From NCBI GenBank assembly GCA_951406725.2, contig OX597826.1, positions 33,170,001-33,234,000 on the forward strand: a stretch of DNA of 64,000 nucleotides. The letters run 5' to 3'. This stretch comes from Octopus vulgaris (Eukaryota). Under the pieces are notes generated by a model. The model saw only the letters and a list, made by a program, of their open reading frames with translations, did not search any database and had not been told where the DNA came from. This document shows, piece after piece, positions 27,461 through 57,440 of the stretch. The position numbers were made by a program, and so were the translations under genes. Every line of letters starts with the position of its first letter. The stretch's first letter is position 1.

Positions 27461-28997
27461 GGGGGGGGTGCAGAAATATAGGGGAGCATCAGTGGGAGGG
27501 GTGAGAGGGGTAATGCATGGTGAAATAGCGTATTGAAGAGGGGGGTTCAAAGAGTAGACACCTATAATGGTGGTGGGGGGGGGTGCAGAAATATAGGGGA
27601 GCACCAGTGGGAGGGGTGAGCACCAGTGGGAGGGGTGGTTCAGAGGACAGGTTCTAGGCAAGTAGAACGTAGGATATCGAGAGAGGGGTAATGCATGGTG
27701 AAATAGCGTATTGAAGAGGGGGTTCAAAGAGTAGACACCTATAATGGTGGTGGGGGGTGCAGAAATATAGGGGAGCACCAGTGGGAGGGGTGGTTCAGAG
27801 GACAGGTTCTAGGCAAGTAGAACGTAGGATATCGAGAGAGGGGTAATGCATGGTGAAATAGCGTATTGAAGAGGGGGTTCAAAGAGTAGACACCTATAAT
27901 GGTGGTGGGGGGTGCAGAAATATAGGGGAGCACCAGTGGGAGGGGTGGTTCAGAGGACAGGTTCTAGGCAAGTAGAACGTAGGATATCGAGAGAGGGGTA
28001 ATGCATGGTGAAATAGCGTATTGAAGAGGGGGGTTCAAAGAGTAGACACCTATAATGGTGGTGGGGGGTGCAGAAATATAGGGGAGCACCAGTGGGAGGG
28101 GTGGTTCAGAGGACAGGTTCTAGGCAAGTAGAACGTAGGATATCGAGAGAGGGGTAATGCATGGTGAAATAGCGTATTGAAGAGGGGGTTCAAAGAGTAG
28201 ACACCTATAATGGTGGTGGGGGGTGCAGAAATATAGGGGAGCACCAGTGGGAGGGGTGGTTCAGAGGACAGGTTCTAGGCAAGTAGAACGTAGGATATCG
28301 AGAGAGGGGTAATGCATGGTGAAATAGCGTATTGAAGAGGGGGTTCAAAGAGTAGACACCTATAATGGTGGTGGGGGGTGCAGAAATATAGGGGAGCACC
28401 AGTGGGAGGGGTGGTTCAGAGGACAGGTTCTAGGCAAGTAGAACGTAGGATATCGAGAGAGGGGTAATGCATGGTGAAATAGCATATTGAAGAGGGGGGT
28501 TCAAAGAGTAGACACCTATAATGGTGGTGGGGGGTGCAGAAATATAGGGGAGCACCAGTGGGAGGGGTGGTTCAGAGGACAGGTTCTAGGCAAGTAGAAC
28601 GTAGGATATCGAGAGAGGGGTAATGCATGGTGAAATAGCGTATTGAAGAGGGGGTTCAAAGAGTAGACACCTATAATGGTGGTGGGGGGTGCAGAAATAT
28701 AGGGGAGCACCAGTGGGAGGGGTGGTTCAGAGGACAGGTTCTAGGCAAGTAGAACGTAGGATATCGAGAGAGGGGTAATGCATGGTGAAATAGCGTATTG
28801 AAGAGGGGGTTCAAAGAGTAGACACCTATAATGGTGGTGGGGGGTGCAGAAATATAGGGGAGCACCAGTGGGAGGGGTGGTTCAGAGGACAGGTTCTAGG
28901 CAAGTAGAACGTAGGATATCGAGAGAGGGGTAATGCATGGTGAAATAGCGTATTGAAGAGGGGGGTTCAAAGAGTAGACACCTATAATGGTGGTGGG
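27461..28997. repeat. Tandem array of ~10 copies of a 155/156-bp G/A-rich unit
   Basis: gcagaaatatagggga recurs at 27470, 27585, 27759, 27914, 28070, 28225, 28380, 28536, 28691 and 28846. Units are almost identical; complete units carry one GATATC and one ATGCAT. Confidence 0.97.
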
Positions 28998-52679: not shown

Positions 52680-53692
52680 TAATAATAATAATAATAATAA
52701 TAATGATGATGTTGATGATGATGATGATAATGATGATGATAGTGACTGGAAACTAATCTAAAGTTATATTTTATGAAAGACTTTACGAAATATTCTTTTT
52801 TCTATCATCTATGACACAAAGCTGTGCAATGGAATGAAAGATGATGTAACATTTCCTTGCTTTTAAGGTTTCAATTTAGAAATAAAATAAAATTAGTTGT
52901 GTTCAGAAGTGTGTAGAAAGAAATGCCAAAAAAAAAAAAAGAAAGAAAATTTAAATAATAAAACCAAACAACAAAAACATGAAAAAACAAAGTGGATTAA
53001 GAAGAGGTGCAAGGACCAAAAGAATATCTGCGTTTCTACTCCTTCTTCTGCCCCCTGTTCTTCCACCTCATCACCATCATGGCTGCTGTCATCGTCGTCA
53101 TCATCATCGTTGTCATCATCATCATTTTCATAAGCCAACATTTTAGCTTCCATATTTGTCCATATTGGCAAAGATTTTTCTCAGACATTATATTGGGTGT
53201 TTTTTTTTTTCATAATGGCTTCTTTATGAAATTGTTTCTTTTTGAATTTTAAAATGCAGATACTTTCCTTCTCTCTTTCCAACTCTGCCTCTCCTTGTGT
53301 GCGTGTGTGTGTATATATACATATATATATATATATATGTATGTATGTATGTATGTATACATATAAAGATATATATATATATAATTATATATTTATATAT
53401 GCATATGCATATAGACATACACACACACACACACACATATATATGCATATATATATATTGGTATATCTCTATCTATCTATACATACACACACCTAAACTC
53501 TTATCTAAGATGTATGATTATAATTTTATGAATGATAGAAATCTGCAAAAGAGACCCGATAGAATAAGTACTGGGCTTACAAAGAATAAGTCCTGGGGTC
53601 GATTTGCTCGACTAAAGGTGGTGCTCCAGCATGGCCGCAGTCAAATGACTGAAACAAGTAAAAGAGAGAAAGAGAGTATATATGTATATATG

Positions 53693-54306: not shown

Positions 54307-54504
54307 ATGTGTGTGTATATATATATACACAGTTGTGACTGTCTGGTAAGTAGCTTGCTCACCAACCACATGGTTCCTGGTTCAGTTCCACTGCATGGCA
54401 CCTTGGGCAAGTGTCTTCTACTATAGCCTCAGGCTGAACAAAGCTTTGTGAGCGGATTTGGTAGATGGAAACTGAAAGAAGCCTGTCATATATATATATA
54501 TATA

Positions 54505-54989
54505 TAAACAAGTCAAATTGCGATAAAATAAGATTAATTATTATCGCTGGTATTTCTAGCACAAGCCATATATTTATCATATATCAGTACATTAAGGCGA
54601 AATATGTGCTAGAAACACAGAAGCTAGATAAATTTAGTGAAATGAAGATAAAAACATTTACTAACTCGGTTCCTCTTAGACTGCAGTTTCGTTCTTTTCA
54701 GCAATAAAGATAATTTATTTGCTCAGGGAGAATTCATCGGTAAGAGCCCTGTTGTTCTGAGATCCTAACTCACTAGAAGCATGTGCTTCTAATGATTTGC
54801 TCTCTCTAACTAATCAGATCACTGCGCAGACTCAGAACGTCCCGACAAAACTAGGGATTTCTGGTATATTGTCTAACGCTCAAAATTTATCGAGAAATAT
54901 GTAAACAAGTCAAATTGCGATAAAATAAGATTAATTATTATCGCTGGTAATTCTAGCACAAGCCATATATTTATTATATATCAGTACAT
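54505..54989 (-). mobile_element. Retrozyme/PLE-like element: 397-nt unit with 88-bp terminal redundancy
   Basis: 54505-54592 is repeated at 54902-54989 (2 mismatches). An HHR lies on the minus strand, and the element is flanked by (TA)n. Confidence 0.8.
54673..54746 (-). ncRNA. Type I hammerhead ribozyme, U4C core variant, GUC site
   Basis: Minus strand reads ctctta-CCGATGA-attct...agaac-GAAA-ctgcag-TC-taagag. Stem I is perfect and stem III is palindromic. Confidence 0.8.
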
Positions 54990-55004
54990 GATATATATAT
55001 ATCA

Positions 55005-55055
<51 letters not shown>

Positions 55056-55290
55056 ACAATTGAGGATAAAATCTTTAAAAGAAATTATCAGTAGTCAGCG
55101 TGAAAAACCTCGTAAGAGAAAAATCCGTAAAATCTTCCTCTTTGAAAATATTCATTTATATTATATTGAGGGTACTACTATTCGTAGATACCAACACGCT
55201 AAGAGGGACCAATGCGGTCAAAACTACTAAAATAAACAAAATTTTACCGAATGCAAAACTTCAAAACACATCATTTTAAAAAAGAATTCA

Positions 55291-55354
55291 GTTACATATC
55301 ACATGTGATTTCGCATTTAATGCAGAATATGCATTTCATGTTCGTCAGTGCAAC
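55291..55354 (-). ncRNA. Type I hammerhead ribozyme (inverted copy)
   Basis: Exact reverse complement of 55841-55904. Confidence 0.78.
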
Positions 55355-55840
55355 AAACTCAAGAAATATAAGAGAAAACATAACATTACAAGCTCGATAG
55401 CCAACCGTAGAATTCGTCGTAGCATGTACGAATGTTTATCTTTACATATCTATGAAAATGGCGGGCTTATTCGCAATGCATTTCGGTAACAAATTGTCTA
55501 GTCGGAATAAAAATTCAGTATTGAACTATTCTGGTGAATATAAATGAATATTTTCAAAGAGGAAGATTTTACGGAATTTTTCTCTTACGAGGTTTTTCAC
55601 GCTGACTACTGATAATTTCTTTTAAAGATTTTATCCTCAATTGTTAATTTATATTTTTCACCGGAATAGTTCAATACTGAATTTTTATTCCGACTAGACA
55701 ATTTGTTACCGAAATGCATTGCGAATAAGCCCGCCATTTTCATAGATATGTAAAGATAAATATTCGTACATGCTACGACGAATTCTACAGTTGGCTATCG
55801 AGCTTGTAATGTTATGTTTTCTCTTATATTTCTTGAGTTT

Positions 55841-55904
55841 GTTGCACTGACGAACATGAAATGCATATTCTGCATTAAATGCGAAATCACATGTGATATG
55901 TAAC
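55841..55904 (+). ncRNA. Type I hammerhead ribozyme with palindromic stem III
   Basis: gttgca-CTGACGA-acatgaaatgca tattc tgcattaaatgc-GAAA-tcacatgtga-TA-tgtaac. Confidence 0.78.
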
Positions 55905-56039
55905 TGAATTCTTTTTTAAAATGATGTGTTTTGAAGTTTTGCATTCGGTAAAATTTTGTTTATTTTAGTAGTTTTGACCGCATTGGTCCCTCTTAGCGTG
56001 TTGGTATCTACAAATAGTAGTACCCTCAATATAATATTA

Positions 56040-56116
<77 letters not shown>

Positions 56117-57440
56117 ATGTATTTATATATATATGTATGCATATGTTTGTGTGTCTGTGCTTGTTGCCCCACCGTCACTTGACCACCAATGTTGGTGTTT
56201 TTATGTCCCTGTAACTTAGTGGCTCACAAAGGAGACCAATAGAATAAGTACTAGGCTTGCAAAGAATAAGTCCTGGAGTCGATTTGCTCGACTAAAGGTG
56301 GTGCTCCAGCATGGCTTCAGTCAAATGCCTGAAACAAATAAAACAGAAAATGAACATATGCATACACATACACACACACACATATATATATATGTACACA
56401 CACACATATATATATATATATATTGTGCATGCACATACACAGGCATGAACCACATTCACTCTGATGAAAAAAGACAGAACACCTGCAAAATCTTAATCAT
56501 AGAAAAATGTCCAATTTTCTTTCCATAAAATAATTTATTTTATTCTAATCAATCGAATAAATAAATAAATAACATTAACGATTTTCATAGCTCAAATTTA
56601 ATAATTCATACTACCTGCATGATTATCTTTTAGATTTTGATTTTTCTAATTTCGCTTTCTTCAGTTTTTTTTTTTTTGCTTTTTAATTTTCTTGTAATTT
56701 TGACTCAAATTTGTGCCATTCTTCATAAACAGAAACCTATAAAGTTTTTCTGAATTCAAAATTGATTTAATAATATTCTGAAACAGTTCCTTAAGGATTT
56801 AGAGCAGCAACTCAAAGCCCTCGAAGTCCTTAAATTGGTAAAAATATTTTGTCTGTTTTGGCAGAATGCAGAGGGACACTATCTTGTTGGTATATTGTCA
56901 CAAATGTCCACCGGGGTTGACTTTGCTTTTCATGTTTTCAGGATCGATAAATTAAGTACCAGTTGTATACTGGGGTCGATCTAATCGACTGCCCCTCCCC
57001 CAAAATTTCAGGCCTTGTATCTAGAGCGGAAAAGGGTATATTGTCACAAATGTATAGAAGCTAGGTGATGATAAAGTTGGATTGTTAAGTGGTGTGGTTG
57101 AGGGGTAAGAAATTTTGCTTCGCAACAATATGGTTCCAGATTCCTTAGGCAAATCTTTTCTACGATAGCTGCAGGCTGGCCAAAGACATGTAGATGGAAA
57201 CTGAAAGAAGCCTGTCATATATATACATACATACTTATGTCACATGATAACATGACTAACAAGACTATTGGATGGTACTACACATCACTGGTCACAATGT
57301 GGCTCAGCAAAAGAAATTGATAAAACAGATACCAGGCTTTAAAAAAGTGAATGCTGGGATTGATTTGTTCAACTCAAATGCTTCAAGGCAGTGCTCCAGC
57401 ATGACCACAGTCTTATAGCAGAAACAAGTAAAAGAAAGAC

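Follow-up and report, generated by a model that had tools for sequence, protein, structure and literature searches.

The window, i.e., the whole 64,000-nt stretch of DNA that was analysed, contains an insertion of a noncoding hammerhead repeat on the minus strand between two (TA)n runs. The insertion is 485 nt long and comprises 1.22 units (485/397). Unit coordinates (u) are defined as 54902 minus the window position; on this scale, the predicted ribozyme cut falls after u223, and u397 (54505) is the last position of the element. The following features are found at the locus.

54505..54989, minus strand: retrozyme insertion of 1.22 units, with a fixed 3′ end at 54505 and a ragged 5′ end at 54989
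54505..54901, minus strand: complete 397-nt unit
54902..54989, minus strand: 5′-truncated upstream unit (u310-397), the "88-bp repeat", whose length varies among copies
54997..55007, minus strand: stutter at the 5′ junction, with u313-323 copied again; stutters also occur in other copies
54488..54504: (TA)n target run, 3′ side
55008..55052: (TA)n target run, 5′ side
54506..54517, minus strand: 3′-terminal 12-mer, shared with the 3′ end of Penelope-like element (PLE) family 2
54673..54746, minus strand: type I hammerhead, Rfam RF00163 (Hammerhead_1), 29.4 bits
54746-54741 with 54678-54673, minus strand: stem I, six perfect pairs
54740-54734, minus strand: core CCGAUGA
54739, minus strand: C4 (U4C), subfamily-wide
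54691..54733, minus strand: stem II with a long extension; its first pair is A10.1 (54733).C11.1 (54691), not G-C
54690-54687, minus strand: GAAA
54687-54680, minus strand: stem III palindrome ACUGCAGU
54681-54679, minus strand: GUC
54678..54679, minus strand: predicted self-cleavage site, after u223 (covariance-model alignment)
54771..54794, minus strand: 11-bp hairpin (u108-131), retained across subfamilies with base changes

The direct repeats at 54505-54592 and 54902-54989 are 88 nt long, have a period of 397, and are identical at 86/88 positions (97.7%). No ORF of at least 150 aa overlaps them, which agrees with the original prediction of ORF-free 88-bp repeats at a 397-bp period. The longest ATG ORF in a doubled unit has 34 aa, the GC content of the unit is 0.35, and a search for Pol III A/B boxes gave no match. 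Pfam searches with eight ORFs of the window and a tblastn search of the window with PLE ORF2 gave no match either.

The predicted hammerhead parts (a perfect stem I, CCGAUGA, ACUGCAGU, GUC, and a site at 54679/54678) are all in place, and their strand is the minus strand. The original prediction had specified neither this strand nor the A.C first pair of stem II (G10.1A). The Hammerhead_1 score of 29.4 bits (E 4.1e-5 in a 701-base search) lies below the gathering score of 34, which explains why the hammerhead is absent from the whole-window Rfam gathering scan. The core departs from the canonical type I consensus (C3 U4 G5 A6 N G8 A9, G12 A13 A14 A15.1, NUH) at C4, and the window subfamily lacks the canonical G10.1-C11.1 pair.

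The stem at 54771-54794 is complete (11 bp) on the minus strand only, where a U.G pair stands in the position of a C.A mismatch on the plus strand. The hairpin that had been predicted here is present, but the "highly structured RNA" drawn from it was overstated, as the fold energy relative to shuffles reaches z = -2.5 for the linear and z = -1.9 for the circular form, with 55% of the bases of the latter paired. Under constrained folding, C4 and canonical subfamilies could not be told apart. RNAalifold found zero consensus pairs in the last 60 nt of 12 sequences; the terminal claim therefore concerns a sequence motif only, and a conserved terminal hairpin is not supported.

Dispersed copies with a fixed 3′ end

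The genome searched comprises 2.8 Gb in 227 contigs. A DNA search, in which the best 40 of 681 candidates were scored, returned at least 70 matches that are 91-100% identical, and an exact pattern of the 3′ end plus TAT has 294 matches genome-wide. The main set consists of 85 independent loci that were picked by best match or hammerhead pattern, after removal of 7 overlapping fetches and 2 segmental duplicates. The 3′ end lies at u392-397 in 80/85 loci and exactly at u397 in 69; in the 26 loci that came from the DNA search, reaching u397 was built in, but they were free to extend past it. None of the 85 loci has its 3′ end at the cut site, and 3′ ends at the cut site are thus not supported. 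The fixed 3′ end is located 174 nt beyond the cleavage site and is followed by (TA)n, with (TA)4 directly downstream in 83/85 loci and upstream in 62/85.

The 5′ ends are ragged and start at 72 distinct positions among the 85 loci. Fixed LTR-like ends in all copies, the pattern that the original prediction had named as speaking against itself, are thus not what is found. With a variable overlap and a fixed 3′ end, the copies have neither an LTR in the 88-bp overlap nor randomly permuted ends. The permutation survey that had been proposed consequently gives a split answer: 5′ ends do vary, but free permutation is excluded by the fixed 3′ end. The core of the prediction, that a hammerhead repeat was retro-inserted here as a copy longer than one unit, is supported.

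At least two cores are present in 13/85 loci, and arrays reach 6.55 units. A further 58 loci chosen by the 3′ end are 26-946 nt long; overall, copy sizes range from 0.07 to 6.6 units. Units are joined head to tail at exactly 397-404 nt without an ORF between them. Inverted 5′ pieces occur in 5/12 loci of subfamily E, the most divergent one, and in two more loci (L198 and L149), with none in 87 hammerhead-selected loci. The 5′ end lies at u199-229 in nine loci, and copies of the 3′ cleavage product alone are not abundant. Because the target is (TA)n, a target site duplication (TSD) is not discernible.

Such tandem arrays might also arise by satellite-like DNA amplification, in which unequal crossover and gene conversion would carry a dead ribozyme repeat into microsatellites. 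Local array growth may contribute to the 13 multicore loci. As an account of the family this is very improbable, since dispersal over many contigs, a base-exact 3′ end, 5′ truncation, stutters, and inversions are a footprint of reverse transcription.

A non-LTR retrozyme is characterized by a short noncoding tandem unit of 150-450 bp, a type I hammerhead in each unit, low GC content, and the lack of LTR ends, all of which the octopus family shows with its 397-404-nt unit. Plant LTR retrozymes are defined by two LTRs with type III hammerheads and a 4-bp TSD, whereas the octopus copies have a type I hammerhead, a variable overlap, and (TA)n flanks. The internal fixed 3′ end, 5′ truncation, and partial tandems are those expected of a PLE-mobilised element.

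Two further observations concern individual copies. In L061 (3880-4170, oriented), a tRNA-like SINE of ~290 bp with a short duplication sits within a retrozyme unit at u291. At L255 (G000:C6:54783152), a 1425-nt contig (run X3, record 22) joins unit positions 5-290 to retrozyme-free single-copy sequence of G000; the junction fits a polymorphic insertion, a splice, or a chimera. Pieces of the unit are present in contigs from sequencing runs of unrecorded type, which carry no transcription, strand, or circularity information.

Core variants and the cleavage signal

The U4C substitution is present as predicted and, moreover, subfamily-wide. Same-flank exact patterns give 98 matches for C4 versus 4 for U4, and position 4 is C in 99 of 106 aligned monomers (median identity to the window copy 97.2%, selected partly on the hammerhead motif), with the other core positions conserved. 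A mutation of a single copy is thereby ruled out. The substitution is paired with G10.1A: position 10.1 is A in 106/106 monomers, and position 11.1 is C in 81, A in 19, T in 4, and a gap in 2. The sister subfamilies (75-93% identity) have the canonical core with G10.1-C11.1 (222 exact matches), and this pair is found in 16/30 monomers that cover all subfamilies.

The stems covary across subfamilies. In stem II of the same 30 monomers, pair 2 is U-A in 20 and C-G in 9, pair 3 is C-G in 18 and U-A in 12, and pair 4 is U-A in 14, C-G in 12, and A-U in 2 (pairs counted by position; MAFFT misaligns stem II). Stem I is 88% paired across subfamilies, with double changes at 2/6 pairs. The junction motif TGTTTAC(A/G)TATT is retained down to 75% identity among sequences that had been selected on the motif.

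In a tree of 30 rows (2 of 32 picks, which lacked a clean segment, were dropped), midpoint-rooted on the divergent subfamily E in place of a true outgroup, a clade of C4 copies is recovered (support 100/99). Within it lies a U4 group (99/94) whose stem II starts with A.A and whose stem I is compensated. The nesting suggests that G10.1A came first, followed by U4C and then by C11.1A together with a return to U4. As C4 lies within a CpG, this reversion would be an easy transition. In runs X15 and X16, contigs of organism A mostly have C4, and those of organism C mostly have U4 with the stem I change of subfamily D; this hints at lineage-specific expansions, contig depth not being copy number.

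The window subfamily has spread about hundredfold while bearing two core changes that are predicted to weaken the ribozyme. With U4C and A10.1.C11.1, its ribozyme is probably derived and slow. According to the available text of Perreault 2011 (PMC3088659), U4C "considerably decreases activity in vitro" yet allows viroid infectivity. The viroid hammerhead cited there has the same core substitution as a rare variant, whereas in octopus it has become fixed along with G10.1A in a genomic subfamily of ~100 copies.

In the classical retrozyme cycle, a dimer cleaves itself, a host ligase closes the 397-nt circle, and the reverse transcriptase (RT) rolls around it, which would require that the C4 ribozyme cuts enough. 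This route is shown for retrozymes of coral, mussel, and axolotl in the available text of Cervera 2020 (PMC7229834), and it is compatible with insertion by a PLE, for which the form of the template is left unspecified. Apart from the changes above, the core is intact, and the stems covary. Of the 51 5′ ends that 133 clean-ended loci have within u175-310, 11 are located at u222-227 (p 1e-5 a priori; 0.001 by scan), and in the A/D lineage 22 of 30 junctions lie at ~u222-233, with 4 at u208-221 (hand tally, among the matches listed, 100 of 119). The excess near the cut site is, however, not replicated genome-wide. In the canonical-type subfamilies, a genome-wide pattern places 6/31 junctions in u222-227, where 6 are expected (hand tally), and the C4 copies alone give a weak signal (5/31; p 0.011, scan 0.5). 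Only 1 of 18 newly seen A/D loci falls in u222-227 (again among 100 of 119 matches listed), and most lie at u230-231, where the base of stem I offers a TA microhomology; cleavage and RT stalling fit the A/D pattern equally.

The units within a locus differ at 0.73% of sites (74/10102 sites, 49 loci), compared to 0.8-3.1% between loci, depending on the subfamily, and 1.0% to the nearest locus. The differences within loci follow no recurring pattern, and L199 has five identical units. These values are consistent with a homogeneous multimer or with one template copied repeatedly, as a circle or by template jumping. Identical units would suit the classical cycle, as would arrays longer than 5′ truncation could maintain in the absence of regeneration. 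The lowered activity of U4C in vitro (Perreault 2011, PMC3088659) and the 8/9 Xenopus retrozyme dimers that stay uncleaved in the available version of Li 2026 (bioRxiv 10.64898/2026.07.22.740005) count against it, and its operation in this family is given somewhat less than an even chance. Divergent RT-PCR, which had been proposed as a check for circles, is not decisive alone, as genomic tandem arrays carry the same circle-like junction sequence.

Penelope-like elements and the route of insertion

A search for GIY-YIG domains, in which the best 150 of 6136 candidates were scored, revealed several PLE families; a closer partner may exist beyond this number. Four of the loci (L183, L184, L239, and L248) represent at least two young families with RT-CxxC-GIY-YIG frames of 781 aa and 785 aa, each preceded by a separate ORF of 359-437 aa (stop to stop). 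The 781-aa frames of family 1 are intact and have Pfam matches to GIY-YIG (4.2e-7) and RVT_1 (1.1e-6, just under the cut-off), and the linker of this family is CX4CxxC. The accessible text of Craig 2021 (PMC8557442) assigns this linker to Neptune and Nematis and links it to microsatellite bias. Family 2 has intact 785-aa frames, as in L239 and L248, and is young, with 98-100% identity among the best 40 of 2208 candidates. The PLEs examined have fixed 3′ ends on (TA)n and U3-A8 minimal-type hammerheads near the 3′ end. Minimal PLE hammerheads, and a dimer mode for palindromic stems III, are described by Cervera 2014 (PMC4209133, seen in part).

The fixed internal 3′ end and the 5′ truncation of the octopus copies correspond to the geometry that Frangieh 2024 (PMC11167929), in its available text, demonstrates for a PLE protein. 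The protein nicks AT-rich DNA and begins reverse transcription within its RNA, at sites that match genomic ends; in the Poseidon PLE, internal initiation in vitro is independent of ribozyme activity. Inverted 5′ pieces and partial tandems are likewise described for PLEs in the portions available of Craig 2021 (PMC8557442).

Between the unit and PLE terminal repeats, no DNA homology was found in 30 GIY-YIG loci and 20 long family-2 loci, so descent does not point to the donor. The 3′ ends of the window unit and PLE family 2 have 12 nt (54506..54517) in common, with CATAT next in both. In the unit, the 12-mer adjoins the near-invariant TGTTTAC(A/G)TATT motif, which extends across the unit junction and is the putative RT start site. 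A match of 12 over 11 PLE ends is reached by 23/3000 shuffles for subfamily A; the same test gives 751-2988 of 3000 for the sister subfamilies, which is not significant, and T-rich TTGTTT ends also occur in other PLE families. As a link to PLEs, the motif is weak.

A tblastn search with PLE ORF2 gave matches at 8 retrozyme loci. Five were read, and only L077 (G000:C18, ~76.946-76.948 Mb) is a fusion, with the PLE downstream; in the other three, the PLE is ~1.5 kb or more distant by coordinates. In L077, a C4 retrozyme (u12-397 plus u1-91) is joined, in the sense orientation and over a 2-nt TA microhomology, to a 1.2-kb 3′ piece of PLE family 2. Its duplicate L076 has neither the PLE piece nor u1-91, and this sole fusion could reflect a later PLE insertion with target deletion. 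Apparent PLE links at L156/L256, L201, L048, and L090 are separate insertions divided by (TA)n or unique sequence.

The unit might be merely a truncated pLTR of an autonomous PLE. PLEs have the same end pattern, and the pLTRs of 21 PLE entries show homology to Xenopus retrozyme families in the available version of Li 2026 (bioRxiv 10.64898/2026.07.22.740005). This origin is nevertheless improbable: the head-to-tail units are ORF-free between their joins, none of the 85 + 58 + 20 loci has a continuous upstream ORF, and L077, the one fusion among the five ORF2-matching loci read, has its PLE downstream. The PLEs read also carry minimal U3-A8 hammerheads, unlike the canonical-type motif of the retrozyme, and neither an attached RT and GIY-YIG ORF nor pLTR homology was found among the best 150 of 6136 PLE candidates.

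Both 5′ truncation and inversion occur with LINEs as well, and the mover could be a microsatellite-targeting LINE. This is unlikely, because the copies have no poly(A) and no tail of their own, their 3′ end lies, in the manner of PLEs, inside a unit that continues, and the sole fusion, found with PLE ORF2 as the query, is with a PLE.

With fair confidence, the family is regarded as a young, noncoding, nonautonomous non-LTR retrozyme in (TA)n that is likely inserted by the endonuclease and RT of a Neptune-type PLE. In this process, the PLE protein would bind RNA of the 397-nt unit in multimeric or circular form, and its GIY-YIG domain would nick a (TA)n run. RT would begin at a single point inside the RNA, 174 nt past the ribozyme cut; at this UGUUUA/CAUAU junction, AUAU would be able to pair with the (TA)n target. 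It would proceed backwards via the hammerhead into the next unit and halt at a variable point, yielding copies of 0.07 to 6.6 units. Efficient cleavage is probably not needed for insertion. A more tentative extension takes the family as a SINE-like RNA parasite of a Neptune-type PLE, with a non-pLTR origin and a priming-site mimic, whose most recent subfamilies spread after stepwise damage to the hammerhead (G10.1A, U4C, then C11.1A with the return to U4), the ribozyme and circle being dispensable. L077 would then record one template switch with the PLE, and slow or absent cleavage would favour copying.

The kind of element is known. In the accessible text of Cervera & de la Pena 2020 (PMC7229834), non-LTR retrozymes are defined, circles are shown in mussel, coral, and axolotl, and PLEs are proposed as movers. 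The 350-390-bp repeats of mussel are nearest in size to the octopus unit. As far as that text goes, both share a low-GC (35%) noncoding tandem unit of ~400 nt with one type I hammerhead, a short palindromic stem III, copies from monomers to multimers, and coexisting PLEs. The octopus family differs in U4C with A10.1.C11.1, in a TSD that is not discernible in (TA)n, and in a 3′ end mapped away from the cut. Li, Clavereau & Pollet 2026 (bioRxiv 10.64898/2026.07.22.740005), in the part available, report pLTR homology in Xenopus and cleavage in 1/9 dimers. A PLE link and many solo and partial copies are common to both systems, but their link consists of pLTR homology and co-occurrence in vertebrates, whereas that in octopus consists of end geometry, target, fusion, and a short 3′ motif, without pLTR homology.

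With EN+ PLEs that have the Neptune/Nematis-type linker, as far as described in the available texts (PMC8557442, PMC11167929), the retrozyme shares partial tandems, 5′ truncation, a microsatellite bias, a probable fixed internal RT start, and, in some loci, inverted 5′ pieces; unlike them, it has no ORF and a canonical-type rather than a minimal hammerhead. The RT start of PAc is not target-homologous (PMC11167929, in part), whereas the octopus AUAU could pair with (TA)n. A literature search, largely of records other than full texts, found neither a cephalopod retrozyme nor a retrozyme with mapped fixed 3′ ends nor a genomic family fixed for U4C.

The variant core, the mapped start site, the target, and the candidate partner are new detail; neither a new element class nor a host function is established. 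The available texts of Cervera 2020 (PMC7229834) and Li 2026 leave the mover of animal retrozymes and the need for cleavage and circles as questions. The octopus family makes both directly testable in vitro, as it combines a putative RT start known to the base and a defined target with a candidate donor PLE that is intact and with a natural series of core alleles of known copy number (canonical, G10.1A, U4C with G10.1A, and A.A with U4).

Other repeats of the window accompany the insertion. SINE-like dispersed repeats with (TA)n ends lie at 53556-53690, 54340-54487, and 56236-56370, and the TA tail of one of them hosts the retrozyme. The ~1-kb element at 55053-56040 has 384-nt inverted arms that are 99% complementary and probably represents a young insertion of foldback or MITE-like type into (TA)n; a relative with 95-98% identity adjoins the retrozyme array in L199. 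A young tandem array with a 155-bp period (8.9 copies, 99% matches) occupies 27618-28997.
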